DNA from: a virus
Direction: 5' to 3' (one strand)
Virus genome (UHGV): UHGV-1366525
DNA length: 53,490 nt
Positions 1 to 31,699 of this stretch are shown here, piece after piece (position 1 is the first letter of the stretch; every line of letters begins with the position of its first letter). The notes beneath the pieces were generated by a model, which saw nothing but the letters and a program-made list of their open reading frames with translations, was not told where the DNA came from and did not search any database. A program made the translations under genes and the position numbers.

Positions 1-1877
1 ATTTTTTTCCAAACATCTGTGAATGTTGCAATACTTGACCAAGCGTTAGTATAGTATGCAACATCTGCAGAGCCGATTACGTATCCTACTCGAAACTCAT
101 TTGTGCCATAAATAGGTACAAACTCTGTTACCATACCCCACTCACTTGAAGAATTAGGTCTGCATACACCACTTGCGGTCATCTTATTTCCAGCTATATA
201 TCCAATTTCTGTAAGATATTCAGGCAGTGAAGTTTTATTAAATGACGTTGTACTAGCATTTATAATGCTAAAGGATAACCTAAGATTGGCTCGAATCTGC
301 ATGTTAATATTGTGTTGATAAACCTGTGCCCAAGCAGGAGTACTATTACCGTTAGAGGTTAGTATTTGTCCGTTAGTACCTTGACTTGTCGGTGCATAAA
401 AATTAGAAGTAAGTTGTGAATTCGTAGTATTAAATGACTGTCCGTTTAATTTCAAATATGGAATAGTACTTACATTCTCCATATACCAAAAATGCATAGT
501 ACCACTATATTGCCCGTGCCTCAAATGATAACGATTATAGGTACCTGCATTAGTAGTAACGGTAAAAGTATACGTACCACCCATAGAGCCACTGAGGGTT
601 ATTTCATAATTACCTTCAATAAACCAATCTTGAATCCAATGAATTGCTCCAGAGGCAAAATTCGTAAATTGTCTTGTACACTGAAGCGTCCCCTGTATCA
701 TATTACCATTAACAGGCAAATCTATAACAAGGTCTGCTGTTCCATTACCATTTTTGCCAAGTAAAATACGTGCAGTACCTTGTGTACCATTCGAAGGACT
801 CTGAATTTTGACCGGTGCTCCAACAAATGGCGTCGATAACATAGCCACCGTACCAGTCAACAAATAAGTCTGTACGCCATCTATAATACAATATGTGGTA
901 GTTGACCTACTGTCTACCCAATTAAGACCACTACTCGTAAGTTCTGCCCCACCGGTAACTACTCCCGCAGAAGGTGACATACCGACTTTTACCATAGAAT
1001 CAGAAATCTGTACACCACTACCACTTGTGTCATCTCTTATAATCAGAGGGTTTACAACTTGTGGATTGACAAAGGTTGCCGTTTTTACAGTAACAGACCA
1101 TTTATTAACCAGAACTGCAGAACTATCTAATGCTGTAATTGTACCTGCTATCAACCATCTACGAGGGTCATCTGAAATCATCGCAAGACAAGTAATATAA
1201 TCCCCAATGACGGGGGCTCTATTAAAACCAGCATTAGTTGCTTTCAGACTTGATATAGTACCAACTATATTCTCAGCAGGTTCTTCTGTAAATTGTGCAG
1301 TAGTTGTAGTGGTCAGGGCATCTTTTCCTGCAGCACCCTGTGGTCCTTGAGGACCTTGAGCACCAACAGGACCCTGAGCACCTATAGCACCATCTGCACC
1401 ATCAGCGCCCGGAGCACCTGTTTCGCCCTTTTGTCCTTGAGGCCCACGAAGATTGCCTGTCTTGATACCAGCAGTATTACTCGTAGAACGAATGACATCA
1501 CCTACAGCGGCAGAGACACCGAGAATGTTTATAGTTGTAGAACCAGCATTAACAAAGGCATCACCAACGATCGCGGTAGAACTATAACCAGATACACTCG
1601 GCACTGCTGTGGTTACGTGCCACGTCTGTGCTCCTCTATCACCTGTGTCACCTTTTGGCCCCTGCTGTCCAGAAGGTCCTGTTGGACCGGTTGCTCCCTG
1701 AGGACCTGTAGCACCTTGCAAACCTTGGGGACCGCGCTCTCCTTGCAAACCTCGTGGCCCCTGTGGACCTGTATCACCTTTTTCGCCCCTTTCACCTTGT
1801 GGGGCGGTGAAAGTACCCATTTCAAGGGTACTTCCATCCGTCATTGTAGCTGTAAGTTTATACTTATTGTCAGCCAT
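1..1877 (-). CDS. collagen-like repeat tail fibre protein (partial; C-terminus beyond window start)
   Basis: Reverse-strand ATG at 1877..1875, RBS-like GGAGAATAG just upstream. By-eye translation [52 protein letters not shown]... gives G-X-Y tracts interrupted by a non-collagen insert homologous to inserts in the neighbouring 987-aa fibre. No complete reverse ORF is listed for 1..1600, which fits a frame open to the window edge. Confidence 0.7.
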
Positions 1878-1889
1878 ATCTATTCTCCT

Positions 1890-4853
1890 TTAATTACCAC
1901 CTGAAGGTATTTCTAAAATTACAGTAACATCGAAACTATCACCTGTACCATCTTTAACAGTATAAAGGGTAGGATAAGAAATGCCTCCACCTGTATTTGG
2001 ATAATTAGCAAGTTCAATTAAAACTGTTGTGTCATTACCTACAACAGTTCCTATACGTCCATTCTCTTCAGCGCCACCCCATTTATTCTCATCAGTAATA
2101 TAGAAAATATTTGCATTCATCGCCTGTACACCCGGAGAAGCATTCGCTTTACAAGTTATATTATAAACCTTACTCTTATCAGCATTTTGGAATCTAATTA
2201 CTGCAATATCAGGTGAATCTACGATAAACGGAAGAGAGACAAGTTCTATCGCAATGGATGCAATGCCTACACCAGTATCACCTTTGACACCTTGTACTCC
2301 CTGTGGTCCTGTCGGTCCGGCCGGTCCTTGAGGACCTGTGTCACCTGGGTCTCCCTTATCACCTTTAAGACCTTGTGGCCCTTGTGAACCTGTATCACCT
2401 TTTAACCCTTGAGGCCCTTGTTCACCTTGCTCACCTTGAGGACCGACAGGACCAATCTCTCCTTGGGGACCAACAGGACCAGTAGGACCTTCTGGTCCTT
2501 GAGCACCAGTGTCACCTTTCAATCCTTGGGCACCTTGAGGACCTCTAATATTACCCACCTTTGCGCCCATAGGTGCAGTAGTTTTTTGATATTGAACAAC
2601 ATCACCTAAAACCGTACTGACACCAAAAATTGTAAGACCTGCTACGGCTGCAACAACATAGTCATTTAAAATAATGCCCGGAACATCTGTAACACTCGTA
2701 ACATTCTCTGTTGCAAAGAAATATTCTGTTCCACGTTCACCAGTATCACCTTTTGGTCCTTGAGCGCCTGTATCACCTTTGAGACCTTGAACACCCTGTG
2801 GTCCCTGAGGTCCCTGTTCACCTGTGTCACCTTTAAGACCTTGAGGACCTTGTTCGCCCTGCTCTCCCTGTGGACCAACAGGACCTTGAATACCTTGCAA
2901 TCCTTGTGGACCTTGAGGACCTATATCGCCTTTTGGTCCTTGAAGAGGTCCATGATTCACCCATGTATAATTCCCACCATATAACTCACAAACATAGATG
3001 TCATATGGCTCAGTTGCTCCAACAGAAAAGGCGTGTCCTACAAGAGAGACATCTGCAGCGGGCAAGGAAGAAGAGGCATCTACATGCTCAGAAATAGAGA
3101 ATGATTGACCATCATCGCCTTTATCTCCCTTGTCACCTTTCGGTCCTTGAACACCCTGTGCACCAGCAGGTCCCTGAGCACCTGTATCACCTTTGATACC
3201 TTGAATACCTTGAGGACCTTGCTCGCCTTTCAAACCCTGCGGTCCTTGCGCACCAGCGGGTCCCTGTGGACCTTGAGCACCATCCGCACCTTTTGGCCCC
3301 TGTGGTCCTGTATCACCTTTAGGACCGGCAGGACCGGCGGGACCGGCGGGACCGGTATCACCAGTATCACCTTTAGGACCAGCAGGACCCTGTACTCCAG
3401 CAGGACCTGTGGCACCTGTCTCACCTTTTGGGCCTGTAGGACCTGTCGCACCTGTCTCACCTTTTACACCTTGTAAACCTTGTGGTCCTTGAGGACCTGT
3501 CTCACCTTGCAAGCCTTGAGGCCCTTGTTCACCTGGTTCACCTTTATCACCCTTTTCGCCTTGAATACCTTGCGGTCCTTGAGGCCCTTGAGCACCGGCC
3601 GGTCCCTGAGCACCCGTGTCACCTTTGAGACCTTGTGGTCCTTGCTCACCCGGGTCACCTTTAAGACCAACTGCGCCTGCGTCACCTTTATCACCTTTAG
3701 GACCTTGAATACCTTGCGGACCCTGTTCACCTTGCGGACCAACCGCACCCTGCAATCCTTGTGGTCCCTGAGGACCTGTTGGTCCCATAGGCCCCTCTGG
3801 ACCAGTTTGTCCTCTCGGTCCTTCCGGACCAGGAGCTCCTTGTGGCCCTTGAGGACCTGTCGCACCTGTATCACCTTTCAGACCCTGTGCACCTCTTACA
3901 CCTTGAGGACCTTCCGGACCTGTCTGTCCTTGAATACCTTGCAGACCTTGAGGTCCCTGTGGACCTGCCACACCTCTTGGACCTTCTGGACCTTGAGGAC
4001 CGGCTACACCAGCAGGCCCCTGTTCGCCTTTTGGACCTTGAGGACCTGCAGGACCTTCGCCAGCAATCAACTGCCACAAAGGAGAAGTCTTACTCGGTGT
4101 AACACCTTGTGTACCATCTGTCGTACAGACAAAAGATTCATTGTCATACGAGCAAGAGTCGAGCCTATTGTAGACACGAGTTGGGCTATAATCACCTGTG
4201 GGATTAAGTTCAGTATAACCTGTAGGACCTTCAGGACCAGGCTCGCCTTGTGGTCCCTGTGGACCCATAGGACCTTGAGGACCTGTATCACCCTTGTCAC
4301 CTTTGTCACCTTTGGGACCTACAGTACTACTATCGACAGGAATAAAATAAGGCACGGCAGAAGAACCTTCAGGAGTAACGACGATACCGTCAACAACTTC
4401 AAGTTGCCTCGTCCAAATACGACCATTCGCGAGGAGAACTTCTGTCAAGACATAGTTAAGGTCGTTTACCCATGTTGATACACCTTCAAGAAGAGCACCT
4501 GTTACGGTGATATATTCATTTTCACCATCAGGTACAATCTTATCTACAACAGTATTTGTATAGTTATAATACCAAATATTCGGTGTCTTTGTACCATCAA
4601 CACCATCATAAGTTATCCCATCAGGTATTGTACCAAGCACATTAACCTTATTGACGAAACGGTCCATGAGAGAAGGACTCGCCGAAACAATCTGGTCTTT
4701 AACTACAAAATCGGCAGGATTAAAACCTGCCATACCTACCTTATTAACATCTGCGACAGGAGCAAACAAGTTATACTTATCTTTTTGCATCACTACGCCA
4801 GACGCAGGGTTATAAGGAATTATACTTCTTTCTACAACATTCTTATCTGGCAT
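1890..4853 (-). CDS. collagen-like repeat tail fibre protein (987 aa)
   Basis: ORF track. Long G-X-Y tracts (GPQGPQG, GEQGPQG, KGDTG) in about seven blocks, separated by globular inserts, with non-collagen N- and C-terminal domains. RBS AGGGAGG upstream. Start overlaps the stop of the upstream gene. Confidence 0.85.
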
Positions 4854-6045
4854 TTGTCACGCCTCCCTGTATATTTGCACTTACAAATAATTTTTTAGGT
4901 TCAAGTATAATTGACTTAGTATCATAAGTAGGCATAATCGGCATACCCGAGTCATACAATTCTTGCATCTCTTTTCTAACTCGCCAGTCACTTATGAGTT
5001 TAATCTGTTCTTGCAGCTCAGCATCTGTCCAAGGAAGTTCAGGCACATCGTCACCTTCCGACAACAAGATACCATACACATGTTCTGCAACAGATTCACC
5101 TGCAAGGACTTTCGCATCATACAAATAAGTCTGTTCAGTCCAATCTTTCGTGTTAAATTGTTTAACTACCCGGAAGTTATAATCGTACCACTTATACTCA
5201 CCCTTGGCCGCAGGCGCATATCTCATGACATTGTGTGCTCTCTGCCAGTCAGAACTATTTGGAATAGACTCGCGTGTACCATTAGGATTTATAACATAAT
5301 AAATCGTATTATCATAGATACAAGTTTGACCCGCAGCATATGGCTGTCTCAACTCTTCAAATGTACGATATACCTCATCATACTGTAAATCATAAGTACC
5401 TTCATCTGTTATCATTTTAAGCCATTGTGTAGCAGTATCTGAAGGTTCTTCTGTAGGACTATCTTGTAGAGCCGCCCATACAGCATTATTATGGACGCAT
5501 GTGAATCCCCGCATTATATTTATACCGGGCGTATATTTTGGCGTGATAGGAAAACGATACACAGTAAGAATAGCCTCAGGCCAACAATATTTATACTGTC
5601 TATTACCATCATTATTAGAATCGGTATAGAACAAGTAATTACCTACAAAAAAGTCAGAAGTAGCGCTATCATTCATCTGTCCGCCTGCTTGATAGCCATA
5701 AAGACTAAGTGCCTCTGTGACACTGAAAGTCGAAAGATACAAGGCTTCTGTCTCAATAAACTTCTTACGCGGGCCTATCGACACAACTTTACCTGTTTTA
5801 TCCTCTTTCCATTCATTCGACAAATCAAGCCACCATGTCGTCCTAAAATCACCTTCTTGCTCATATCTTGCGGCGCTAACAGTGATTGCAAGATATGGAT
5901 TATCCCAGCCAATAAAGAGCATATAAGGGTCGCCTTTCTCATTCGTCACCTCAAAGTCAAGTGACCATGTCTCTCCTCGCTGGATATAAACATCATCTCC
6001 AACAGTTCTCATACTCACTCCTTGTCGGCCGTAATACCTGTACAT
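4843..6045 (-). CDS. hypothetical virion or tail protein (400 aa)
   Basis: ORF track. Sits in an operon with the fibre genes, with an overlapping start/stop. Confidence 0.7.
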
Positions 6046-6335
6046 ACCTCATACAGAACTTGCAAACCTTTCTGATGTTTTAACTCTTCTGCGATATATT
6101 CTTTTGTTTTCTCAATGCACAATTTTATAAACTTTTTATCGGCAGCAGCGGTCGGAGTAGGCTCATCTTTTTGTGTCTCCGGATTCCATGTTGTGAACAA
6201 ATAGCCTGCAGACAAAAGGTCATTCAGATTGTTTAGCATCTTTTGATAACCAGAGATAGCCTCAGCCTCATCTTCAAGATTCTCTTGTAGCCAAGATGCA
6301 ATCATCCCGAGCTTATTTTTATCTAACTTTGCCAT
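6015..6335 (-). CDS. hypothetical protein (106 aa)
   Basis: ORF track. Lies between the portal candidate and the 400-aa gene. Confidence 0.55.
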   Translation of the reverse strand: MAKLDKNKLGMIASWLQENLEDEAEAISGYQKMLNNLNDLLSAGYLFTTWNPETQKDEPTPTAAADKKFIKLCIEKTKEYIAEELKHQKGLQVLYEVCTGITADKE

Positions 6336-8398
6336 TATCTATTACCTCCACTTAATTGTACTTGTTGTTGCACAGAAGTTCTCTCTGTCTCGGCTGAGTT
6401 CTTCTGATTTGTCTTATCCACATTTGCTGCATGTGTCTGCCCATTACCTTCAGGCCCGGAATTAGGTCTTGCCCCTCCTTGCCCGCTACTTTGCTGAGTG
6501 AGGGCTGCTGCCTGCTGCAAAATTTGCGGATTCTGCAAGAGGGCTTGCTCAAGGTCAGCAGGAATATGAGCAGATGCTTCTTGAATACCAGCGAGAGCCA
6601 TTTTTGACAGGGGGTATTGCATTTCATCCATAATATTCCAATACAGCTCAAGAACTCTCGGGTCTTGTGGATTGCCGAATGTCCCCATTGTGAATTGCTG
6701 CAGAGCTTCTTGCCACATCTGCACACGATTATTAGAGAGTGTGGCCGCCGGGTCAGTTGAGAAGGCAAAATCGTCTGCATAGTACAAGTTGCCCCATTTA
6801 TCTTTACGGAGGAACATGTACTTATTCCACAACATTTCTTCTTTCTGACCGTTGGGCAAGACTTTCACGAATCTGCGTGTCTCATCAGAGAATGCTAAGA
6901 GATACTTGAACATAAGCTCATAGACACCAGCAAATGCTGCGCTCTTCATCACACGCAAGGACTCAAGACGTCCCGCACTCTGTAAGGCAGAAATCTCTTT
7001 TGCTTTACCAGAAGTAGCCGTAGAATCTGTCTGACCTTGATAAGCTTGTGTAACACCGGAAGATGCTCTTGCACTCTCATAGAACAATTGTGCCGCGGCA
7101 ATATCCTGTGAGACATCGGCGAGTACTTGCTTAGACTGCACCATCTGTGCCTCTTCTGTCGTACGTACGCCCATAATCTTAAAAGTCTCATCCTCACTGT
7201 TCATCTTCATCTTTTGAGGCTTGGTAACCACAGTGCCAGACTTTAAGATTTTATCTTCTACTTTTGTGAGTATCTTATTGACAGAATCTTGCATCTCAAG
7301 CAAGATACCTACTTCAGAAATCCCATAAATTGTTTCCAAGGATGACACAGCCGGACGCGGAACAAAGGGAAGTTGCCGAATCTGATAGAACGGAACCTCT
7401 GTGCCTGCCTCGAGAAATGTCACTACCTCTGCGTTGTTGGTCGGGTCATCTGTCTCACCCTCGGCATAAGGATTTCTCAACAACTGTAAATCTTCTTCAA
7501 GAATCTCAGTCGTTGCATTCTCATAGTGAAAGTGTGTATTGCCACAATTCCTACAGACATCACCGATTGGATTCACCGTGCCACAGGCAGTACATTTACG
7601 AAGTTTGCGAATCTGCCAGTCATCGTCCCATGCAATTACTTGTCGCGACTGAGATGCATACATAAATCTGCCGATAACGCCATTCTCATTTCTATAATAA
7701 TAAGAAATGACCTCAGTCGTATTATTACCTGTGTTAATAGGAATTATGAGCCTGTGGTACAAATCATAGATTCTCGAGAGGCTCATCTCCGAGCGCTCAA
7801 ACCCATAGTTCATTATTCTATAATCTGTGCACCCGGGCTCGGGAATAAACTGGTCAGCGAGGAGACACTCTACTCTAAGGTCACCAGAACGCTCATAAGT
7901 ATTATCTAAGGAGTCCCAACAGATTTTATACCAAGAGGTGCCATCAATGTACGTCGCTCTCTCGGAACGGTCGTTCTCTTGTTCTGTCAGCATTCTGTCT
8001 ATCTCAAACTTCAGATAGTTCTCAGTCACATCAACAAGAGGGAGGTCCTCTTTCCGTCGCGGGGACAAACGAGGCATGGGAATAGAGTTATCAACAGTAG
8101 ACTCTATCAGCTCATATATCATCTTCCGCAAAGAAATAGACTTCCGCTTTGATTCTTTGCCAGTATCTCTGTCAAGCGCATTCAGCGTGCCGAGATAAGC
8201 TTTCCGCCACTTCCGCAAATTCTCTGGCGACACATAGGATATGCCCTCTTGATATGAAGAAGCGATGGCATAGAGAGCTGCTACCTTCTCTACCATAGCT
8301 TGTTCTTTCGGCGTGTTCTGATACCTATGGTCGATATTCCATTGTAGGTATAAATCTATTCTATCCATGCTTTTCCTCACTTTATTACACTCTATCAA
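6335..8398 (-). CDS. putative portal protein (687 aa)
   Basis: Assigned by position (first large gene after the large terminase) and by size. Contains a CxxC...CxxC insert (CTACGTVNPIGDVCRNCGN). No diagnostic motif was verified. Confidence 0.5.
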   Translation of the reverse strand: MIECNKVRKSMDRIDLYLQWNIDHRYQNTPKEQAMVEKVAALYAIASSYQEGISYVSPENLRKWRKAYLGTLNALDRDTGKESKRKSISLRKMIYELIESTVDNSIPMPRLSPRRKEDLPLVDVTENYLKFEIDRMLTEQENDRSERATYIDGTSWYKICWDSLDNTYERSGDLRVECLLADQFIPEPGCTDYRIMNYGFERSEMSLSRIYDLYHRLIIPINTGNNTTEVISYYYRNENGVIGRFMYASQSRQVIAWDDDWQIRKLRKCTACGTVNPIGDVCRNCGNTHFHYENATTEILEEDLQLLRNPYAEGETDDPTNNAEVVTFLEAGTEVPFYQIRQLPFVPRPAVSSLETIYGISEVGILLEMQDSVNKILTKVEDKILKSGTVVTKPQKMKMNSEDETFKIMGVRTTEEAQMVQSKQVLADVSQDIAAAQLFYESARASSGVTQAYQGQTDSTATSGKAKEISALQSAGRLESLRVMKSAAFAGVYELMFKYLLAFSDETRRFVKVLPNGQKEEMLWNKYMFLRKDKWGNLYYADDFAFSTDPAATLSNNRVQMWQEALQQFTMGTFGNPQDPRVLELYWNIMDEMQYPLSKMALAGIQEASAHIPADLEQALLQNPQILQQAAALTQQSSGQGGARPNSGPEGNGQTHAANVDKTNQKNSAETERTSVQQQVQLSGGNR

Positions 8399-8418
8399 TT
8401 ATCTTATACGGATATATC

Positions 8419-8433
8419 AGTTTTATACGACAA
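8419..8433 (-). promoter_or_regulatory. conserved motif TTGTCGTATAAAACT upstream of the portal gene (candidate late promoter, TATAAA-type -10)
   Basis: 13 of 14 nt match a second copy at 11208..11220, both 20-50 nt upstream of minus-strand late gene starts. TATAAAA resembles -10-only late promoters. Confidence 0.35.
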
Positions 8434-8504
8434 AATTACCGTCTTTCTGACTGTCACTTTTAAGGAAAATCCCGAAAGAAATCATCTCAAAATATCGTGA
8501 ATAT

Positions 8505-8594
8505 GGATTTTAAGATATGATAGAGAGGAATTAAATATCCTCTTGAGATAATATTCACGGGAGAATATCATCCCTCTATTATATCTTAAAATCC
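8505..8594. repeat. palindromic hairpin element, copy 1 (arms GGATTTTAAGATATGATAGAGAGG / CCCTCTATTATATCTTAAAATCC)
   Basis: Inverted arms of 23-24 bp around a ~43-nt spacer that has its own internal pairing (CGTGAATAT / ATATTCACG). Intergenic, between the TerL stop and the portal start. Confidence 0.8.
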
Positions 8595-8617
8595 TTTCCG
8601 GTATATAATGACAAAAG

Positions 8618-10282
8618 TTATTCTCTCCATTCTTCTGGTGCTCCGTATGTCTGAATAAATTTTGCTTGTGCCTCTGCCGACATCTGCTCAAAGTCCTCCC
8701 ACATATCCGGATACCAATGAGTATAACGTATGAACCTACGCTCAGCCTTGGGTGTTTCCCCTGTGATTAGCTTGATTAGGCGGATTACACCTTGGCTGCA
8801 TTCGTCCACCATGTCATCATGTTTCCCATACGGGAATGACCTAAACTGTGTTATGACCTTGTCTCGCGGGGACAAAGTGGTCTGCATATACCAGTCGACA
8901 TCTTCTGCAGGCAGGTCATCTGCAATGTAATAATGCCCCGCTGTGACAAATGGAGAAATCGCGGAGGCTCGGGAGACCTTACCGCCCATAGGATTTACCG
9001 ACACAACGGGAGGAATAGAAGGGATATAGCGTAAGGTATCTGCAATTGCTGGCCCATTCGCTTTATCCTCTATGACCATCTCGTCAATCTCCGGAAACTC
9101 CTCAGCGAACCACTTTATTTTCTCTAATGTCTCTGTGAAGGTTAGACGCTTATTCACCTGATGATAGAGGTATATATCGCCTTCATAAATACCTCTCAGC
9201 CCCATCGCCACAAAGTCGTTTTCTTCTGTGCCCTTAAATGTCGCGTCAATAGATAACTGAAGATACTCAAACTTCTTACGGGCTTTAATCTCTTGCGGTG
9301 AGAGATGCGGAATATCTCGTTCTAACACGAAGTCTGTTCGGTGAAATTGACGGAATGTGGTTGCGTCAAATAAGTTGCCGGTAGCACCTGTGGGCCGTCC
9401 TTGATACAAGGAGTTCCACACACGCTCACCCTCAGCGGCTCGCACAACCATTTTCTTTGATTTTAGCCACTCATTGTCGTTACAAATTTTCTGTGGCAGA
9501 AGAGGGTCTCCAAGATGTGGGCCCATCAGAGAGTCTCCAAGGTGACGACCTAAAGGGTCAGGCCCTTCATTGGCGGCTACCTCGTCATACTCACAAGGGA
9601 GGTTAATATCTTTCCATATGAACTCTGACCAATTATCCTTAATAAACCCGACGACGTCGTTCTCTACCCACCTTGTCTGTATTACAATCAGCTTCCCATG
9701 CGGATAAATACGACTCTGCACAGATGGCCCCATCTCGGCAAGAATCTTCTTTATAATAACCTCGCTAGATGCCTCAGCAGCATTCTTGATAGGGTCATCA
9801 ATGATAAATAGCTCAGCACCAAAGCCTGTAATACCGGCATCCAAGCCAGCCGCACGACATTTACCGCCTTTCTCTGTTGCCCACAGCTCAGCTCTCTGCA
9901 GATTCTTATCCGGGCCTACATGCCAGATTAACGGAGCTAATCGATTAAACTTATCACGACAAGACTTAGAGAACCCTTCGGCAAAAGTGCTCTGATATGA
10001 GCATAAGATGACCTCACCTCTCGGATTGTTACCAAGAAACCATGCCGGTAAGGTCTCCGTCAACATATACGTCTTACCATGTCTCGGTGGAACAGACAAG
10101 AGCAATATATCAAACGCGTTCTCTGTCTTTGCTGACATAAACTCCTGTACTTGCTCTGTGACGTATTTGTGAAAATGTGTCATGCAAAAGCCTTCGTTGG
10201 CAAACTCAACGAAGGCCGGATATGAGCGCATAAGCTCTCTTCTTTTTAATTCTCCCTTTACACCTACAAAGACGTCACTCAT
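8618..10282 (-). CDS. terL: terminase large subunit (554 aa)
   Basis: Walker-A-like PRHGKTYML, Walker-B-like IIDDPIK, C-terminal nuclease-like acidic residues. Position upstream of the portal. Confidence 0.85.
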   Translation of the reverse strand: MSDVFVGVKGELKRRELMRSYPAFVEFANEGFCMTHFHKYVTEQVQEFMSAKTENAFDILLLSVPPRHGKTYMLTETLPAWFLGNNPRGEVILCSYQSTFAEGFSKSCRDKFNRLAPLIWHVGPDKNLQRAELWATEKGGKCRAAGLDAGITGFGAELFIIDDPIKNAAEASSEVIIKKILAEMGPSVQSRIYPHGKLIVIQTRWVENDVVGFIKDNWSEFIWKDINLPCEYDEVAANEGPDPLGRHLGDSLMGPHLGDPLLPQKICNDNEWLKSKKMVVRAAEGERVWNSLYQGRPTGATGNLFDATTFRQFHRTDFVLERDIPHLSPQEIKARKKFEYLQLSIDATFKGTEENDFVAMGLRGIYEGDIYLYHQVNKRLTFTETLEKIKWFAEEFPEIDEMVIEDKANGPAIADTLRYIPSIPPVVSVNPMGGKVSRASAISPFVTAGHYYIADDLPAEDVDWYMQTTLSPRDKVITQFRSFPYGKHDDMVDECSQGVIRLIKLITGETPKAERRFIRYTHWYPDMWEDFEQMSAEAQAKFIQTYGAPEEWRE

Positions 10283-10454
10283 GACTGAATCTCACTTTTC
10301 GTTTATTATCTTCTATAACGTCTGGACTAATTGTCATAGGCTTTTGTGGTGTATTGCTATTATCTTTTATGACAGAGGCTTTCTTGATTATAACCTCATT
10401 ACTCAGACGTATTCTATCTACCGTTCCGCTATTCGCAGTTGACATGTCACTCAT
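10275..10454 (-). CDS. small hypothetical protein (59 aa, below the ORF-track cutoff)
   Basis: Read by eye: AGGAGG then ATG, MSDMSTANSGTVDRIRLSNEV..., stop overlapping the TerL start by 8 nt. Confidence 0.4.
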   Translation of the reverse strand: MSDMSTANSGTVDRIRLSNEVIIKKASVIKDNSNTPQKPMTISPDVIEDNKRKVRFSHE

Positions 10455-10475
10455 AATACCTCCTTGATGTTGCAG

Positions 10476-10670
10476 CTATTCGCGTCCCTTAGAAGGAGAC
10501 CAATCAGGTAACTCCCATGTCGGCTTCCAATTTGGGTCATACAACGGGTCCTCATATTTCGACGGCGGCTGGGAATCTTTTTCCTTCTTATCACATGCCG
10601 ACATAGGAACAAGAAAGAGGAAGGCCAGGGCTATTAGGAGAATGCTACATATCTTCTTTATATGGCGCAT
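10476..10670 (-). CDS. small secreted lipoprotein (signal peptide plus lipobox, Pro-rich ~40-aa mature part)
   Basis: Internal start MRHIKKICSILLIALAFLFLVPMSAC with GAGGT RBS. Lipobox-like MSAC, then DKKEKDSQPPSKYEDPLYDPNWKPTWELPDWSPSKGRE. Confidence 0.55.
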   Translation of the reverse strand: MRHIKKICSILLIALAFLFLVPMSACDKKEKDSQPPSKYEDPLYDPNWKPTWELPDWSPSKGRE

Positions 10671-11172
10671 ATTGTACCTCATCTTCTTTTGTGTCTGGCA
10701 TGCGAGGAATAGAGGTATCAGGCAGCGCTTGAGCAGAGTGATAGCCATCTAAGGCTTTTTGCATAACCTCGAGCTCCTCGTCAGTCAGCGACTCTAAGGG
10801 ATTAGTTACTTGTATCTGCTGTTTTGTTTCATCTATTGGTTTTGCTCCGATGCTATCCCGACGTGCAATATAAGATGAGGCATTATGTCTTGCATAATAA
10901 GACTGACAGCCCTCCATCATTTCACCTTCTGTTGGCAGACGCGATAATCCTTCTGCGCGGAGTTCTTCACACAGCTGCTCATATACGGCCTTCTCGATGA
11001 GATACTCCGGCGCGGGTACGTTATTTTTGTCATAGATAGGAACAGGAGGCAAAGCAGGTCGAGCCCATCTATCGACAATATTTTGTGACCAAGCAGCTCT
11101 CGCCCTCTTCGGGTCCTTAAAAATAACCTCAAATTCACGTTGGTCTCGCAACATCTTGTTCGTAATTTCCAT
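10645..11172 (-). CDS. hypothetical protein (175 aa); possible terminase small subunit by position only
   Basis: First gene of the minus-strand packaging block, upstream of terL. RBS GAGGTG. No motif verified. Confidence 0.6.
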   Translation of the reverse strand: MEITNKMLRDQREFEVIFKDPKRARAAWSQNIVDRWARPALPPVPIYDKNNVPAPEYLIEKAVYEQLCEELRAEGLSRLPTEGEMMEGCQSYYARHNASSYIARRDSIGAKPIDETKQQIQVTNPLESLTDEELEVMQKALDGYHSAQALPDTSIPRMPDTKEDEVQYAPYKEDM

Positions 11173-11407: not shown

Positions 11408-11672
11408 ATAACTTAAATATTTGAAACCAAAATTCTTATGAGCATTAGAGCAGAATGTCATATATCCTCTCCTCTGAAGAGCCGCCCGGGCTCGAATTTT
11501 AATATGGTTCAAAATACATATAACCATCTCTCGAAGAGGTCGAGAGAGAAAGACCCCTCACAATCGAATAAGACAATGCCTCTCTCTTTCAGAGTTCTCT
11601 CTCAGTCCATGATGATGAACACTGCGCTCGACCCGGGTTTTCTCCGATAGGTGGAATCTCGAACAACCAAAC

Positions 11673-11707
11673 CGTCAGAGATGACCCGGAGCAAATCAGC
11701 CTTGGAA
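11673..11707. repeat. left arm of a perfect 35-bp inverted repeat (CGTCAGAGATGACCCGGAGCAAATCAGCCTTGGAA)
   Basis: Exact reverse complement of 12834..12868. Extends to 39/40 identity with flanks. Confidence 0.9.
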
Positions 11708-11725
11708 TCTCGTTCAGAAGTCAAG

Positions 11726-12000: not shown

Positions 12001-12420
12001 ATGAATAGAGTTTACAAGGTTGACGATGGTTTTGAAGTAGTCTGCGACAATGGAGAAGTTGTCAAAGGTGTCAGATGGTTTGAGAAAAAGACTGGTGTCT
12101 GGCATATCAAACTGCCTGCGAATAATCCGACAGGGAGGACCTATATCAGAGAATCGAAACTCAATGCCGATGGTGAATATGAGTTCGAGACCAAGACGAC
12201 GGGTCCGCGAGTCATCGGAAGTGATTTCCTCGATAGAATGACCGAAGAAGAAAGAGACGAATACGAGGAACTCGCCGAACAGAAGAAAGAGATTGACGAG
12301 AGACTCGACGAACTCAAGAAGCTCGCGCTCAGCAGACCGAAGCCGGAGTTGACCGAAGAAGAGAAGTTGCAAAGAGAGATTGAGAAGCTGCAGGCCAAAC
12401 TCAAGATGCTGAAGAAGTAA
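12001..12420 (+). CDS. hypothetical protein, paralog family member A (N-domain WFEK..WHI..L...KTTGPRxIG plus C-terminal coiled coil TEEEKL..IEKLQ.KL)
   Basis: ORF track. RBS AGGAGG. Clear paralogy with 14564..15004 and 15080..15286. Confidence 0.85.
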   Translation: MNRVYKVDDGFEVVCDNGEVVKGVRWFEKKTGVWHIKLPANNPTGRTYIRESKLNADGEYEFETKTTGPRVIGSDFLDRMTEEERDEYEELAEQKKEIDERLDELKKLALSRPKPELTEEEKLQREIEKLQAKLKMLKK

Positions 12421-12432: not shown

Positions 12433-12615
12433 ATGAACGAGACACCTATGACCTGTGCAATATGTGGTTGCATCATAGATGATAACGACATGTGGGAATG
12501 CGAAAATTGCGGCAGAATCGTCTGTGGTTATTGTATTGATAGTGAGGGACTCTGTGACGATTGTCATGATGAGTTTGAAGAGAAGTTCAAAAGCACGCAC
12601 GGATTCATGTGGTAG
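12433..12615 (+). CDS. small zinc-ribbon protein (4x CxxC), single unit
   Basis: CAICGC..CENCG..CGYC..CDDC. RBS AAGGAG. The unit is repeated twice in 13016..13297. Confidence 0.8.
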   Translation: MNETPMTCAICGCIIDDNDMWECENCGRIVCGYCIDSEGLCDDCHDEFEEKFKSTHGFMW

Positions 12616-12823: not shown

Positions 12824-12833
12824 TGTAATGAGG

Positions 12834-12868
12834 TTCCAAGGCTGATTTGCTCCGGGTCATCTCTGACG
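12834..12868. repeat. right arm of the perfect 35-bp inverted repeat
   Basis: Reverse complement of 11673..11707. Confidence 0.9.
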
Positions 12869-13015
12869 ATTTAGTCACACTTAGACGAGACAATTAGGGA
12901 GTACAGAGTAATACAAGTAGAGGAGGTGAGTAATAGATAGAATAGAGCACGGTATCCCAAGGGGTTATTCTACCCAAATGAGCTGTAAAACTAAATACAT
13001 ATTAGGAGGTTAGTT

Positions 13016-13297
13016 ATGTACAAGTGTAGTATTTGTGGTCGTAGTATCGACATTGATAAAGACGAACATTTTGTTTGTGATGAATGTGGTGAAATCGTCT
13101 GTCCTGATTGTATCTCTGATAGAGGTTTCTGTAAAAACTGTACCGATTTTGAACCTGATGTGTTTTACTGTCATGTTTGTGGTCGTATATGTGACACAGA
13201 AGATGGTGATTATGAGGTCTGTGACGAATGTGGACATGTTGTTTGCCCAGATTGTTTTGACAGGTATTCCGGATTGTGTCGAAAATGTTTGATGTAA
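13016..13297 (+). CDS. tandem-duplicated zinc-ribbon protein (two 4xCxxC units)
   Basis: CSICG..CDECG..CPDC..CKNC followed by CHVCG..CDECG..CPDC..CRKC. RBS AGGAGG. Confidence 0.8.
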   Translation: MYKCSICGRSIDIDKDEHFVCDECGEIVCPDCISDRGFCKNCTDFEPDVFYCHVCGRICDTEDGDYEVCDECGHVVCPDCFDRYSGLCRKCLM

Positions 13298-13540: not shown

Positions 13541-13577
13541 GTGATTTATCATATTATCATATATCGATTTTTGAGAT

Positions 13578-13694
13578 ATACCGCTTAATTTTCATCGTCA
13601 TTTTATCCGGACAAGAGAGGAAAATCATCGCTTTTAGTCTTATACCGCTTATTTTCCTCGCTATTTTGCTCTGACAAGAGGGAAAATCCTCATC
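13578..13694. repeat. two ~53-bp imperfect direct repeats (iterons), 64-bp period: ATACCGCTTAATTTTCATCGTCATTTTATCCGGACAAGAGAGGAAAATCATCGC / ATACCGCTTATTTTCCTCGCTATTTTGCTCTGACAAGAGGGAAAATCCTCATC
   Basis: Read directly. Each unit also holds a short internal inverted repeat (TTTTCCTC / GAGGGAAAA). Confidence 0.8.
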
Positions 13695-13970
13695 ATATGA
13701 TATGATTTTGTATAATATAAGATAAAATCCCTTAGAGAAATAAAAAATTTCATCATATTATCATATATCATATTATCATATGACTTTTTAAAAATAAAAT
13801 ATAGACCTATAAATATTATAGTATATTATATAATATATAATAATATAAATAGTACTATATTATCTTAAAAATAAAAAGTCATATGATAATATGATATATG
13901 ATAATATGATAGAATTTTTATTTTTCCTATAGGGAATCATCTTATATTATACAAAATCATATCATATGAT
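13691..13970. repeat. ~280-bp AT-rich imperfect palindrome (outer 33-bp arms 13691..13723 and 13938..13970; inner 37-bp arms 13752..13788 and 13874..13910); candidate replication origin
   Basis: Both arm pairs are exact reverse complements. The centre TATATTATATAATATATA is itself palindromic. Iterons lie immediately upstream. Confidence 0.7.
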
Positions 13971-14071
13971 GAGAGATTATACCTTACGACCATATAACCA
14001 TTGTAATCCGGATATCTTGCAAATCTTATTCTCATTGTAACTACATAATTCAACATTAGGAGGCATAAATA

Positions 14072-14443: not shown

Positions 14444-14475
14444 GTTCTTCAATTAAAGGTTCATAATTCTAAAAT

Positions 14476-14510
14476 AAGTGCATATAATATATATGTAGCA
14501 ATTCGAGAGA
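14476..14510 (+). promoter_or_regulatory. candidate sigma-70-type promoter (TTCATA, 17 nt, TATAAT)
   Basis: Perfect -10 TATAAT with 4/6 -35 at 17-bp spacing, about 55 nt upstream of the 14564 gene. Confidence 0.35.
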
Positions 14511-14563: not shown

Positions 14564-15004
14564 ATGTCTGTCAAAATCACCTGTATCAACAAAGAAACTG
14601 AGTCCGGAGTCCCCGAGTTTGAGGCTCTTGACCTCGCTACCAACGAATCCATTCCTATCAAGAATTGGTTCGAGAAGAGCAAGGACAAATGGCACATCGT
14701 CCTTGGCCCTAACTCCGCAAATCGTAAGTATATTGCACATAATGAGTTCTTCGCTAAGGCCGAGAATGACGAATATATTGTCGAGGATAAGACTACTGGT
14801 CCTCGCAAAATCGGAACGAGCCAGCCTGACCGCCATCTCATTCCTTTCATGACGGCAGAAGATAAGGAAGCGTACGATAGTATCATTGCGCGTGCAATCG
14901 AGAATCGTAATGCCCAGAAAGCCCAGAAGCCCGTCATGACTGAGGAAGAAAAGCTCATGGCGCAGATTGAGAAGTTGCAGAAGAAGCTCGCAGCTCTTAA
15001 CTAA
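14564..15004 (+). CDS. hypothetical protein, paralog family member B (full length)
   Basis: Shares NWFEKSKDKWHIVL...KTTGPRKIG and C-terminal MTEEEKLMAQIEKLQKKL with 12001..12420. RBS AAGGAG. Confidence 0.85.
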   Translation: MSVKITCINKETESGVPEFEALDLATNESIPIKNWFEKSKDKWHIVLGPNSANRKYIAHNEFFAKAENDEYIVEDKTTGPRKIGTSQPDRHLIPFMTAEDKEAYDSIIARAIENRNAQKAQKPVMTEEEKLMAQIEKLQKKLAALN

Positions 15005-15079: not shown

Positions 15080-15286
15080 ATGACGATTATTGACTATATC
15101 CTCCCTGAGGACCAAGAGCTGTACAAGCAGATTATCGAAAGAGCGGCAGAAGCCAAGGCAAATGCTCCGAAAGCATCTCGTGCCCCGAGAGGTCCCATGA
15201 CAGAAGAGCAGAAAATTAAGATGGCAGAAGGTAAGCTCGCGAAGCTGCAGGCCAAGCTGGAAGCCCTCAGAGCGCAGCAGGCGTAA
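15080..15286 (+). CDS. hypothetical protein, paralog family member C (C-terminal coiled-coil module only)
   Basis: DQELYKQIIERAAEAK...MTEEQKIKMAEGKLAKLQAKLEAL aligns to the C-terminus of 14564..15004. RBS AAGGAG. Confidence 0.75.
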   Translation: MTIIDYILPEDQELYKQIIERAAEAKANAPKASRAPRGPMTEEQKIKMAEGKLAKLQAKLEALRAQQA

Positions 15287-16187: not shown

Positions 16188-16457
16188 ATGACAGAAGAGC
16201 AAAAGTTACAACTGAGATGTGTCACTGAGATGGAGTTGACAAATTTCTATATTGACCCACTCACAAAGTGTGACCTTCTCCGGAAACTGAGGCAGTTAGG
16301 TCTGCAAGAAGAAAAAGGTGCCTTCTCGGCGACAATCCGTGTGCTGCTGCAGTATTTCGCCGACTCTAAATTTGACGGCATTATTGATGACATCCACACG
16401 TCTATTCGCAGAGAGGTGCTTCTCACAAAATCCAAAAGTAAGAGGTCTACGCTATGA
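16188..16457 (+). CDS. small protein upstream of, and translationally coupled to, the MazF-like gene (candidate cognate antitoxin)
   Basis: ATGA overlap with the 16454 gene, the classic antitoxin-first layout. RBS AAGGAGAAAG. No sequence similarity to MazE was verified. Confidence 0.65.
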   Translation: MTEEQKLQLRCVTEMELTNFYIDPLTKCDLLRKLRQLGLQEEKGAFSATIRVLLQYFADSKFDGIIDDIHTSIRREVLLTKSKSKRSTL

Positions 16458-17140
16458 CAAATACCGTCTACATCCACAAAGGTGACATCTTTTGGCTGTC
16501 TCTCCCTCAGGCCTCTGCATCCTCTACCTCTATTCAGCAAGGGAACAGACCGTATATCGTTATCTCATCTAACTCCGGTTGCATCTCCAGTCCCGTGATT
16601 TCGGTTATCCCTTGTACGACGAAGTTTAAGTCCCTCTCTATTAACGTCACCTTATCGTACAATATCAAAGGGCTGCCGATGCAAGCGTTGTGTAATCAGA
16701 TTCAAACAATCCCGAGAGAGCTCCTCCTCTCTCATAATTATATCGGCAGAGTTACGGACATTGACCTCTCTAATATAGATGAGGCAATCTGTAAAGCATA
16801 TTCTCTCCACCAGACCACCCCATCCTCAACTCCTCTTGTCGATATGCAACAGCAGTTTACCCAAATAGTAGCAAAGATTAAAGAAGAATGCCTCTCCCTC
16901 ACAAAAGACTTGTCTTTTACGGAGAAGCTTATTCATCCGCAAGATAAAAAGCCGTATCTACGCAGAACTACTCTTGACAAGATTAGATTTATGGAAGATT
17001 GGCAATCTTCCATGACACGAGAAGAAGTTGCCGAGAAGCATCACTTTTCTTCGGTGTCGGTAGCAAGAGCAACGTATGGCAGATGGTCGCCATGGTATAA
17101 GAATTTGAGAAGGAGTAAGAGTAATGGAACCGGAGATTAA
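16454..17140 (+). CDS. MazF/PemK/Kid-family toxin domain (N-terminal ~115 aa) fused to a C-terminal HTH-containing domain
   Basis: KGDIFWLSLPQ...GNRPYIVIS...VIPCTTKFKSLSINVTL...MQALCNQIQTI aligns with E. coli MazF (GDLIWVDFDPT..RPAVVLS..CVPCTTQSKGYPFEVVL..VALADQVKSI) and Kid. The C-terminal MTREEVAEKHHFSSVSVARATYGRW is HTH-like. Confidence 0.8.
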   Translation: MTNTVYIHKGDIFWLSLPQASASSTSIQQGNRPYIVISSNSGCISSPVISVIPCTTKFKSLSINVTLSYNIKGLPMQALCNQIQTIPRELLLSHNYIGRVTDIDLSNIDEAICKAYSLHQTTPSSTPLVDMQQQFTQIVAKIKEECLSLTKDLSFTEKLIHPQDKKPYLRRTTLDKIRFMEDWQSSMTREEVAEKHHFSSVSVARATYGRWSPWYKNLRRSKSNGTGD

Positions 17141-19599: not shown

Positions 19600-20002
19600 T
19601 GATGAGTTTATAGAGAATCTAACCGTTCATCTCGAGCAAATTATTAAGTATTGTCAAGAACAGATTGATGATGCTAATACAAAGATTGATGCACTCGAGC
19701 AATCTCAACCTGTTAGGCTTGAAGATATGTCGCAATACTGGCTTGAGCGTGAGCGTTTCACGTTGATATTTATGAACTATATCGATACAGATATGTTTGA
19801 TAACATGTGGTGCGATTCCGGAACAACTGATTCTTTTCACTGGTGGCAAGATAGTGATGAATACTATATTGTCCATATGCCTTCTGGTATGATGGTGAAT
19901 TGGTACAAACATCTTGGCAGAACAAATACTTGTTCTCAGCCGTGGCGCAATGAGAAAGATTTTAAGGAATTTTGCAGACTTCTTGCAGAAGAAATCAAAT
20001 AA
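19583..20002 (+). CDS. hypothetical protein (139 aa)
   Basis: ATG at 19583 with AAGGAG 11 nt upstream. ORF-track frame is 19571..20002. Confidence 0.65.
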   Translation: MAANGNDEFIENLTVHLEQIIKYCQEQIDDANTKIDALEQSQPVRLEDMSQYWLERERFTLIFMNYIDTDMFDNMWCDSGTTDSFHWWQDSDEYYIVHMPSGMMVNWYKHLGRTNTCSQPWRNEKDFKEFCRLLAEEIK

Positions 20003-20012
20003 CCTTTATCCT

Positions 20013-20118
20013 TTTTAAGATATAATAGAAGGGAGGAATTAGAGTGCGGATTCTTTATCGAGACTCTATCTAATTCCTCCCTATTATATCTTAAAATCCA
20101 AATAGCTCGTATTCTGGG
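20013..20118. repeat. palindromic hairpin element, copy 2 (with 3' flank extension AAATAGCTCGTATTCTGGG)
   Basis: Arms TTTTTAAGATATAATAGAAGGGAGGAATTAGAG / CTCTATCTAATTCCTCCCTATTATATCTTAAAATCC. The extension is the reverse complement of the 5' extension of copy 3. Confidence 0.85.
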
Positions 20119-20178
20119 AGAGATTCTAAAAAGATTCATAATTCCGGAAAATCTGCATATAATATAATGTAGGAATTT

Positions 20179-26946: not shown

Positions 26947-29031
26947 ATGGACAAAATGCTCGAGCGGCTTAATGAGAGATTTCCGAATTGCTTGTATGTA
27001 CAGATTAGGAAATACGACCATAAGTTCTGGGAAGGCAAAGAATATGATTCTAAGCATGAGAATAAAGCGCCGCTCACGCCATGGAGAACAAATCCCTTGT
27101 CATTTGAGCAGGCAGAAAAATGTGCCGAAGAAGATTATAGAATCGGTTGGATTGTACCAGAAGGATATGTCATTGTAGATGTAGACAATGAGGACCATCC
27201 GGAGAGTTCTGCGAAAGTAGAGCAGATTCTCACAGCATTAAATATTAAGTATGGTTATAACAGAACTTCTCGTGGCGTTCACTTCTTGTTCAAAGATACG
27301 AAACTTTCTTGTACAAGTGATGCCGTTACAAAATGTTCTCTCGGAATTACCGTCGACCATAGAGCAAATAGAAAAGGTTATGTCATCTTGCCTACGAATG
27401 ACCCTCATCGCGTATGGGGAGAAATTCCGGATGAGCTTGATGAGATTCCTTATTTCTTAAAGCCTATGATGCTCGCTAAAGGACAGATTGAGTCTTTCAT
27501 TGGCATGGGCGAAGGCGATGGCAGAAATGAAGCATTGTTCAAATGGCGTTCTGCCTTATTGAGAACAAACAAATTGTTGACAGAAGAAATAACAGAATCT
27601 CTCAAACTTATCAATGAATACTTGTTCGCTGTTCCTATGCCTGAAAGTGAGATGAAAGGTTCTGTTACAAAAGAACGTAAGACAGATGAGAAGTATCGGC
27701 AGAGTGGTGAGAAGGTAAAACTTAATGTCCTTGAAAAGGAAAATATCTGCAATGTCATTGCCTCTAAAATGGCAAGAGAATATGACTTAATGTGTATTGG
27801 TAAGAAACAGTTTTATAGATTCGATAAGACACATTATAAGTCATTAGATACGATTGACGTAGAACGGATGATTCACTATGACATCAGTGAGAATCTGTCG
27901 AGTTCTCATCGTAAAGAAATAATGGAATTCTTAGCAATGAAAACATATGTTAAAGCAAATACCGTCGACCAGATTTGGAATAAGATTGCTGTAGGAAATG
28001 GCGTTCTTGACCTCGTAACAGGTGAATTATATGAACCTGACCCAGAAGAGAAAAACACCATTTCTATACCGTGGAATTACAACTCTGACCCTCTGCCATC
28101 TCCAAAGATACAAGAGTTCATGGCTCATATATCTGCAAATAAAGATGGTTCGCCGAATGTACAGAAAATGCAATTCTTGTATCAAATCGCAGGCTATTGC
28201 CTATTAAAGAGAAACTACTTCTCTAAGTTCTTCATCTTTCAAGGCGATGGTGGTACAGGCAAATCTACGTATCAAGACCTCATCGTTAAACTCATAGGTG
28301 AGAATAATAGAGCACGTGTCGCGATTGATAAAATGGACAACGACTATTATCTCGCGACTCTCTTGTCGAAACTCATCAATATTGATGATGACGCTGTAGA
28401 TGGTAAAGTTCTTGAGAACACAGGTAGGTTCAAATCTCTTATCTCTGGCAATGAGATAACAGTTCGGCAAATCTTCCAAGAACCTATCACGTTTATTCCC
28501 TTTGCGACATGTATGTTCTCTTGTAATAAGTTGCCGAGAATTATGGATAAAACTTCCGGGCTTTATCGTCGAATTGTTATCATCGAGTTGAACAATAAGA
28601 TTGAAAAGCCTGACCCATTATTCTTATTTAAGCTCACTCCTCTTGATATGGAATACTTCTTGTATCAATCGGTTTATTGGCTCGGTATTGCATTGAGAGA
28701 AGGACAGTTTAGAATATCGCAAAGTGAGGCAGACCTTCTGCGTAAATTCAAATGCAGACAGAGTAGCTTGAATGAATGGTGTTACGAAGAGAATATCACC
28801 TTACGTGATGTATATGGTAAACAGATTAACTACTTATATTCTACGTATATCGAATGGGCTCAGAAAAATGGGTATCAAAAGTTGCCGAGTATGTTGACGT
28901 TCAAAGAAGATATTTGTGCTTTGTATAAAGTGGTGCCTATGTATCTCGATGATAACAAGAGAGCAACGACCCAAATCTTTGGTAGAACCGTAGAACCTAC
29001 TCTTGAACAAATGACAGAGGTACCATTCTGA
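26947..29031 (+). CDS. primase-helicase (AEP/PrimPol-type primase N-domain fused to a D5/SF3-type P-loop NTPase)
   Basis: AEP DxD motif VIVDVDNED and SRGVHFLF. Walker A FIFQGDGGTGKST. 694 aa. Confidence 0.75.
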   Translation: MDKMLERLNERFPNCLYVQIRKYDHKFWEGKEYDSKHENKAPLTPWRTNPLSFEQAEKCAEEDYRIGWIVPEGYVIVDVDNEDHPESSAKVEQILTALNIKYGYNRTSRGVHFLFKDTKLSCTSDAVTKCSLGITVDHRANRKGYVILPTNDPHRVWGEIPDELDEIPYFLKPMMLAKGQIESFIGMGEGDGRNEALFKWRSALLRTNKLLTEEITESLKLINEYLFAVPMPESEMKGSVTKERKTDEKYRQSGEKVKLNVLEKENICNVIASKMAREYDLMCIGKKQFYRFDKTHYKSLDTIDVERMIHYDISENLSSSHRKEIMEFLAMKTYVKANTVDQIWNKIAVGNGVLDLVTGELYEPDPEEKNTISIPWNYNSDPLPSPKIQEFMAHISANKDGSPNVQKMQFLYQIAGYCLLKRNYFSKFFIFQGDGGTGKSTYQDLIVKLIGENNRARVAIDKMDNDYYLATLLSKLINIDDDAVDGKVLENTGRFKSLISGNEITVRQIFQEPITFIPFATCMFSCNKLPRIMDKTSGLYRRIVIIELNNKIEKPDPLFLFKLTPLDMEYFLYQSVYWLGIALREGQFRISQSEADLLRKFKCRQSSLNEWCYEENITLRDVYGKQINYLYSTYIEWAQKNGYQKLPSMLTFKEDICALYKVVPMYLDDNKRATTQIFGRTVEPTLEQMTEVPF

Positions 29032-31592: not shown

Positions 31593-31699
31593 CCCAGAAT
31601 ACGAGCTATTTGGATTTTAAGATATAATAGAGAGGAATTATAGAGAGTCTCGAATAAATCCTCATCAAGAATAATGGAATCTCTATTATATCTTAAAAA
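31593..31699. repeat. palindromic hairpin element, copy 3 (with 5' flank extension CCCAGAATACGAGCTATTTGG)
   Basis: Arms GGATTTTAAGATATAATAGAGAGG / CTCTATTATATCTTAAAAA, spacer ~45 nt. Immediately after the DNA-polymerase stop. Confidence 0.85.

Follow-up and report, generated by a model that had tools for sequence, protein, structure and literature searches.

The locus considered here raises a simple question: why does a phage keep a long, non-coding, AT-rich palindrome among its early genes? It lies at about 13.6–14.0 kb in the virus genome UHGV-1366525. The window, i.e. the whole 53,490-nt stretch that was analysed, represents a phage genome of about 53.5 kb with a G+C content (GC) of 41%, and its coordinates match those of a 53,589-bp metagenome contig of the Joint Genome Institute (JGI). 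An earlier reading of the sequence alone (the sequence-only reading) had proposed a replication origin at this place. We found that the palindrome (13689–13973) is a real, selected cis element, conserved across a family of phages in place and layout rather than in sequence, and, judging from sequence features and from analogy with known systems, we consider it the putative origin of bidirectional DNA replication of this phage, with a probability of about one half. A replication origin is still the best-supported reading of the locus, although the grounds differ from those first offered and fall short of proof.

The palindrome is 285 bp long with its symmetry centre at 13831.0 and has two arms of 113 nt (13689–13801 and 13861–13973, 85% complementary), in which exact outer arms of 35 nt and exact inner arms of 39 nt share one register. 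The sequence-only reading had described an imperfect palindrome of about 280 bp centred near 13830, exact 37-bp inner arms (13752–13788 and 13874–13910) and a palindromic core. All three were borne out, the inner arms extending to 39 nt and the core being a mini-palindrome, TATATTATATAATATA, at 13822–13837 (the 18-mer given in that reading begins at 13822). Its exact 33-bp outer arms do pair and extend to 35 nt, but the right one had been placed one base off, as 13691–13723 pairs with 13939–13971. The parts of the locus are as follows:

13547–13565, plus strand: outlying cluster of 2.5 ATCATAT units, TATCATATTATCATATATC, 19 nt, 100% complementary to 13893–13911
13563–13626, plus strand: direct-repeat unit 1 (64-nt period), called an iteron in the sequence-only reading
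13627–13691, plus strand: direct-repeat unit 2, adjoining the palindrome on its left with a slight overlap
13689–13723, no strand assigned: left outer arm, exact over 35 nt, with three overlapping ATCATAT/ATATGAT units and GATTTTG
13724–13751, no strand assigned: left inter-arm segment (version A), unlike its partner 13911–13938 and copied into the right arm of strain L046
13752–13790, no strand assigned: left inner arm, exact over 39 nt, with four ATCATAT units spaced 8, 7 and 8 nt
13791–13871, plus strand: AT-rich centre (about 9% GC), a candidate DNA-unwinding element that holds the TAGACC core (13802–13807) and the mini-palindrome
13872–13910, no strand assigned: right inner arm, exact reverse complement of 13752–13790
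13911–13938, no strand assigned: right inter-arm segment (version B), which in L046 is the reverse complement of version A
13939–13973, no strand assigned: right outer arm, exact reverse complement of 13689–13723

The descriptions of the region as non-coding and extremely AT-rich also held. The only open reading frames (ORFs) found in it are antisense and encode 36 and 39 aa, and GC is 24% in the spacer (13541–14071) and 16% in the palindrome, compared with 41% in the window. No other 100 bp of the window are as AT-rich or form as unstable a duplex as the centre of the palindrome (-90.5 kcal/mol vs. a mean of -130.4, standard deviation 7.3), which in stability lies 5.5 standard deviations below the window mean. 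As single-stranded DNA, the palindrome region folds with -85.5 kcal/mol vs. -24.1 ± 3.4 for 200 shuffled sequences (z = -18.3). The palindrome is present in a single copy and is the sole local inverted repeat of at least 40 nt in the 53.5-kb window.

Of the 28 copies of the heptamer ATCATAT in the window, 17 are located within 13548–13970, i.e. in 0.8% of its length. Copies in the left arm are mostly forward (13692, 13752, 13760, 13767 and 13775 among others) and those in the right arm mostly reverse (including 13881, 13889, 13896, 13904 and 13964), with four units at 7–8-nt spacing in each inner arm. Iteron-like behaviour therefore belongs to these 7–8-bp units in both arms and not to the 53-bp direct repeats of the sequence-only reading. 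The latter are real but imperfect, forming 64-nt units that match at 52 of 67 positions (78%) with two 1-nt indels (alignment score 55 vs. 14 ± 2.4 for shuffled sequences). Neither unit showed an unusual fold as a structured RNA (z -0.06 and -0.75), a third copy on the palindrome's right side was not significant, and no counterpart was seen in the related palindrome loci inspected; these direct repeats are probably lineage-specific, with an accessory role. Since ATCATAT units are present in both arms and the direct repeats are unseen in related loci, the layout is symmetric, with iterons and inverted iterons on the two sides of an AT-rich centre, as at the origins of Staphylococcus aureus pathogenicity islands (SaPIs), instead of the linear, lambda-like order of iterons, unwinding element and palindrome that had been proposed. 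An iteron origin of the lambda or plasmid type likewise had to be given up, because there are just two of the 64-nt units and the short repeats are inverted, not direct.

Within the species, the palindrome is under constraint. In an alignment of the window with five strains that are 94–98% identical over 11–14.2 kb, 1 of the 285 columns of the palindrome was variable, compared with 22 of 165 in the left iteron/direct-repeat spacer and 15 of 98 in the right spacer (the spacer counts include one insertion and one deletion). Variation in the flanking spacers was put at 5–15%. Direct-repeat unit 2 varies more among strains than the palindrome, and strain L048 has a 16-nt insertion, i.e. two more units, in the cluster at 13547–13565. 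In strain L046 (L046:9600–9892), the asymmetric stretch of the right arm corresponding to 13911–13938 is swapped for the reverse complement of the left-arm version, making the palindrome more perfect (87.7% vs. 84.4%); this change is evidence of a conversion between the arms.

Position and architecture are also conserved between species. Relatives were gathered by searches of IMG/VR and of JGI/ENA metagenomes anchored on the terminase large subunit (TerL); searches with the downstream 123-aa protein found none, and a ligase query returned unrelated large phages only. AT-rich palindromes of 230–340 bp were found 2.3–3.8 kb upstream of TerL in L001, L007, L006 and L011/L012 (TerL 72–80% identical to that of the window), in L028 and L029 (56–57%) and in two further contigs, L114 and L126. 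In every longer locus where the local inverted-repeat scan picks up the palindrome, it ranks strongest; the L006 copy is more degenerate and falls below the threshold of that scan. The arm sequences differ between lineages while the design is constant, consisting of short tandem units in inverted orientation that lie in the outer and the inner portion of the arms. The repeats of the relatives are 5–8 nt long and face opposite ways around an AT-rich centre, the units being GTTTC[CG] with a 6-nt period in L001, L006, L007 and L114, TGGTATA in L028, CTGATA-like in L029 and GTTTG/GTTTC in L012, and in some lineages G+C clamps adjoin the centre. In the centre, TAGACC, CTAACC or TAGACA and the TA-rich stretch that comes after it form a small core, whose polarity relative to TerL is equal in seven lineages, so that the element is not perfectly symmetric in function. 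The flanking ORFs of the related palindromes are small and, by eye, have no evident similarity between lineages. A 32-nt inner-arm sequence of the window was found neither in 185,579 species-representative genomes nor in IMG/VR, and the region had no nucleotide match in 50,697 GenBank phage records (megablast and blastn).

The sequence-only reading had suggested looking for an initiator among the neighbouring genes. A candidate was found in the form of a PriRep-type primase-helicase, but its gene lies 13 kb away:

26947–29031, plus strand: primase-helicase, 694 aa, with Prim-Pol, D5_N, superfamily 3 (SF3) helicase and C-terminal domains (Pfam)

The Pfam domains of this protein are Prim-Pol, D5_N, DUF5906 and Pox_D5, and its best match among solved structures is 7OLA, the PriRep5 protein of SaPI5 (phmmer, E 2e-21, residues 286–654 vs. 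380–741), the match running into the C-terminal domain, to PriRep5 residue 741 of 790. From this homology and by analogy with SaPIs, the primase-helicase is a candidate initiator that may bind the arm repeats. Its C-terminal ~60 aa are the part most divergent among relatives, which is compatible with, but not proof of, a changing binding specificity, only two lineages offering both the C-terminus and the arm repeats. A single-sequence structure model of the C-terminus, made with no alignment, was discarded because of its low predicted local distance difference test score (pLDDT 43). No iteron, repeat or palindrome was found beside the primase gene, which ends at 29031, where the next ORF starts. 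This ORF (29031–29624, plus strand, 197 aa), situated between the primase-helicase and PolA genes, matches the catalytic domain of lipoyl-protein ligase A/B at a borderline score (28.0 bits, cut-off 27), which is odd beside replication genes. The small ORFs flanking the palindrome gave no DNA-binding domain in PHROGs or Pfam and only weak zinc-ribbon/RING-like matches.

The Rep proteins of SaPIs are self-loading initiator-helicases that recognise iterons of five or six nucleotides through a winged helix at the C-terminus, and the 6–12 iterons of a SaPI origin are divided equally between the two sides of an AT-rich centre, at least two per side being in opposite orientation (PMC9371898). The palindrome resembles these origins in having short (5–8 nt), element-specific repeats that run in opposite directions on both sides of an AT-rich centre (PMC9371898). 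The likeness extends to the protein, as SaPIs use a D5-like SF3 helicase as initiator, which in SaPI5 carries a fused primase and has a homologue in the primase-helicase of the window; the window thus encodes a helicase of the Rep/PriRep family together with facing iterons around an AT-rich centre. The differences are that the units here are 7–8 nt rather than 5–6 nt long, that they are embedded in a near-perfect 285-bp palindrome with long non-iteron stretches, that the genome is that of a lytic-type 53-kb phage, and that binding is a prediction here.

Since the logic of the locus is the same as that of the SaPI origins, the same mechanism is proposed. We infer that an origin-binding protein encoded by the phage would bind the arm arrays of short repeats (ATCATAT in this lineage), the best candidate being the PriRep-like primase/SF3-helicase (26947–29031) through its C-terminal domain, and that replication would start at the palindrome. 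Because the two arrays point opposite ways, two helicase assemblies would be loaded head-to-head (or tail-to-tail), one on either side of the centre; the centre of ~80 bp and 9% GC would melt first, and the fused primase would then begin synthesis in both directions. The oriented core (TAGACC and the TA-rich stretch) may aid opening, as a weak promoter or as a start site.

A comparable plan is known from herpes simplex virus (HSV) oriL and oriS and from the core origins of polyoma- and papillomaviruses, which are palindromic and in which inverted sites for an initiator-helicase flank an AT-rich centre, with double-hexamer or bidirectional loading. These, however, are origins of eukaryotic viruses, have unrelated sequences and use UL9, large T antigen and E1 as initiators, and HSV oriL is 144 bp long. 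Lambda and plasmid iteron origins share the combination of repeats and an AT-rich unwinding element, but their repeats are direct, helix-phased, 17–22 bp long and on one side only, and they load the host DnaB, whereas those of the window are 7–8 bp, inverted and symmetric. A replication origin in the SaPI-like symmetric form is the best explanation and is favoured over the lambda-like form, at near-even confidence. The T4 origins oriF and oriG and the T7 primary origin consist of a promoter and a downstream AT-rich unwinding element, are non-palindromic and lack flanking repeat arrays; such a promoter-plus-unwinding design would accommodate the oriented core found here.

Several observations weigh against an origin at the palindrome. 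1) The conserved, oriented core at its centre is not required by a purely symmetric origin model. 2) Members of a clade with ~55% TerL identity (L031, L032, L035 and L036) have no such palindrome upstream of TerL (10 kb scanned; 3.7 kb in L031). 3) In SaPIs the origin directly follows rep on its 3' side, whereas here 13 kb separate the palindrome from the primase gene, which lies downstream of it. 4) The inflection in cumulative GC skew that the sequence-only reading had called for is not at the site: the minimum is at ~11 kb and the maximum at ~32 kb, i.e. at the two points where the transcribed strand changes; across the palindrome, the skew turns from plus to minus with a local maximum at 13.6 kb, a terminus-like polarity. 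5) A tandem array nearby could be the origin instead, and analogous arrays of 24–29 bp with other sequences are found in L001, L006 and L114:

11345–11405, no strand assigned: 24-bp tandem array, TGTTTGGTAGTTTGTTGGTTTATA, with 2.5 copies, situated between the divergent late and early genes

As it lies upstream of the gene that opens the packaging operon, this array may be a packaging site; alternatively, it may be the true origin. Its copy number and the structure of the adjoining repeats vary among strains, with about 165 extra bases at the array in L046 and an extra ~84-nt duplication beside it in L019; the sequence AATATGGTTCAAA is found around it, at 11262 and 11503. As for the GC-skew test, it is taken as uninformative rather than as a refutation, because the skew follows gene content and orientation here. 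The plus-strand genes at 13.6–17.0 kb have negative GC skew (-0.05 to -0.30), with positive neighbours on both sides, and this island, which begins exactly at the palindrome, looks like a reflection of gene content and not of replication.

The oriented core allows the reading of a transcriptional switch, in which a promoter in the centre (TAGACC-N16-TATTAT) would read rightwards into the next early genes and separate immediate-early from delayed-early expression, while the arm repeats would be operator arrays at which a lineage-specific phage regulator loops or occludes this promoter. The -35-like TAGACC/CTAACC/TAGACA of fixed polarity is followed 16–18 nt on by a TA-rich hexamer, the next gene begins shortly past the right arm in every lineage, L028 has a third arm copy directly upstream of the ribosome-binding site of the next gene, and lineage-specific repeats beside lineage-specific small ORFs fit a regulator-plus-site cassette. 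However, the core is a weak sigma-70 match (9/12) of a kind expected in AT-rich DNA, has no other intergenic copy in the genome that would make it one of a promoter family, and looks different from the clear sigma-A-type promoters at 14460 and 20130 (TTCATA-N17-TATAAT). Operators of about 100 bp per side with almost perfect symmetry would be unusual, with respect to the genes upstream the left half would point in the antisense direction, and the neighbouring ORFs revealed no DNA-binding domain. We regard both the switch and the operator role of the arms as doubtful. A different use of symmetry would be extrusion, with the cruciform or hairpin form as the actual substrate, either for structure-specific initiation or for cutting by a phage junction-type endonuclease, leading to hairpin or defined ends and to recombination-dependent replication or end formation. 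By analogy, a tailed phage would then be using a palindrome in the manner of poxviruses or parvoviruses. Extrusion is compatible with the conversion between arms in L046 and with the persistence of 230–340-bp palindromes across the family, given the usual fragility of long palindromes in bacteria (PMC4245961, PMC3315005); we nevertheless consider it quite improbable.

A signal for DNA entry, a terminus or concatemer processing would make the palindrome either the boundary of a T5-like first-entering or terminally repeated host-takeover block (11.4–13.7 kb) or an end-processing hairpin. It does directly follow a 2-kb block of tiny early ORFs that starts at the divergent region, and repeat region 3 of the T5 injection stop (iss), which ends the first early block of that phage, likewise consists of non-coding direct and inverted repeats and palindromes that are more conserved than nearby ORFs; the T5 region, however, is 1.2 kb long, lies inside a 10-kb terminal repeat and has paired DnaA boxes (10.1101/866236), whereas neither a terminal repeat nor two-step entry nor a DnaA-box pattern is apparent here. 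Contig ends appeared to favour this explanation: L042 and L043 start at 13689 and 13944, respectively, and contigs end at 13836 (L050), 13718 (L051 and L052) and 13790 (L053), while other contigs end at 11.35–11.65 kb, and the intervening 2.4 kb (11.4–13.8 kb) forms a separate contig in several samples (a contig of its own in two runs). One contig of 51,078 bp, of which one end was read, is ~2.4 kb shorter than the window. Since the right-hand breaks coincide with the exact arms of 35–39 nt, which exceed k = 31, and the left-hand breaks with the variable 24-bp tandem array, they are read as assembly effects, and physical termini, a 2.4-kb terminal repeat and an invertible segment were set aside as explanations of the contig ends. 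Moreover, several full-length assemblies (~53.1–53.5 kb) are circular and broken at different, arbitrary places, and a role in entry or at termini seems unlikely. At the palindrome and the array nearby, assemblies of these phages from short reads break systematically, and this can mimic genome ends or missing segments. An RNA role, in which the early polycistronic transcript would carry a long hairpin as an RNase III site, a stabiliser or a terminator, is very improbable. The region would be transcribed if the early operon reads through, and conserved hairpins are found at five other intergenic sites of the genome, but there is no U-tract after either arm, the arm mismatches show no G:U bias on the sense strand (14 G:T, 21 A:C and 109 other), Rfam gave no match over 11–15 kb (E ≤ 1), and the tandem heptamer arrays and the oriented AT-rich core would be left unexplained. 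Little more than the palindromic form, the AT-richness and the arm-to-arm conversion in one strain speaks for a telomere-resolution site, which the sequence-only reading had named as an alternative, or for a selfish insertion like a miniature inverted-repeat transposable element (MITE). The telRL sites of N15 and PY54 are also palindromes in phage genomes, but they are about 56 bp long and need an adjacent protelomerase; no protelomerase or tyrosine recombinase was found among the ORFs scanned with PHROGs and Pfam, and the flanks are unique in contigs that assemble as circles. An insertion of the MITE type is at odds with the single copy, the inner arm unmatched in the genome and viral contig collections and the absence of a visible flanking duplication, and neither explanation fits an element that is syntenic in diverged relatives with different sequences; both are already largely refuted.

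The genome around the palindrome is arranged in three blocks. Structural and packaging genes, including those for a collagen-like tail fibre, the portal protein and TerL, occupy 1–11172 on the minus strand. They are followed on the plus strand (11.65–31.6 kb) first by tiny early ORFs, then by genes for a MazF/PemK-like protein, a ligase, ThyX and a sigma-70 region-4 protein and, further along, by those for a PD-(D/E)XK exonuclease, a single-strand-binding protein of the gp2.5/Enc34 type, four tRNAs, an SNF2-like helicase, the primase-helicase and PolA. A second minus-strand block (31.9–53.1 kb) includes an ORF of 3221 aa. The genes flanking the palindrome are on the plus strand and paralogues straddle it, in agreement with the sequence-only reading; the paralogous pairs are 12001–12420 with 14564–15004 (E 1e-18), 14564–15004 with 15080–15286, and 12433–12615 with 13016–13297. 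The small proteins of the last pair, encoded just upstream of the palindrome, have repeated CxxC zinc-ribbon/RING-like units. The nearest cultured relatives by TerL are Bacillus and Staphylococcus phages (~33% identity), and the best matches of the terminase and primase of the family are in phages of Bacillus, Staphylococcus, Streptococcus and Paenibacillus; judged by these matches, the hosts of the family are probably Bacillota.

Other features of the genome are also worth noting. A 49-nt inverted repeat (11666–11714 and 12827–12875, 92% complementary), relatively G+C-rich and with neither an unusual RNA fold nor an Rfam match, surrounds 1.1 kb with three small early ORFs and is possibly an invertible or mobile cassette or a pair of regulatory sites. 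A sigma-A-type promoter, TTCATA-N17-TATAAT with TGCATATAATATA, is duplicated at 14455–14491 and 20130–20166, and the same -10 block is present in L006, about 190 nt downstream of the palindrome; these are probably host-RNA-polymerase promoters of this phage group. An intergenic hairpin element of ~100 nt occurs in five copies (8493–8595, 19998–20103, 31600–31712, 41695–41797 and 48440–48541), with conserved outer stems (GGATTTTAAGATATAATAGAGAGG and its reverse complement), variable interiors and, on either strand, RNA folds of -29 to -45 kcal/mol. Of the five, one is at the convergent junction of PolA and the giant ORF and another just upstream of a sigma-A-type promoter; the elements probably act as terminators in both directions or as sites of RNA processing. 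For the motif GATTTTNNNNTATAAT, 9 occurrences were counted vs. 0.8 expected. Among the early genes, 16454–17140 (plus strand) encodes a MazF/PemK-like toxin domain (PHROG 1936, E 3e-19) with a C-terminal extension. On the minus strand, the 3221-aa ORF (31964–41629) has neither a Pfam match nor a D-x-D-x-D motif, so that a virion RNA polymerase could not be inferred, and the 1483-aa ORF (43215–47666) has no Pfam or PHROG match; the two are probably virion or ejection proteins.

If the palindrome is the origin, as proposed, it would provide a mapped origin for a whole family of uncultivated phages of ~50–55 kb, and would extend the combination of a SaPI-type self-loading helicase and facing iterons from satellites to a lytic-type phage, with the origin unlinked to the gene of its initiator. 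The lineage-specific arm repeats would then form a natural series in which the co-evolution of initiator and site specificity may be followed.

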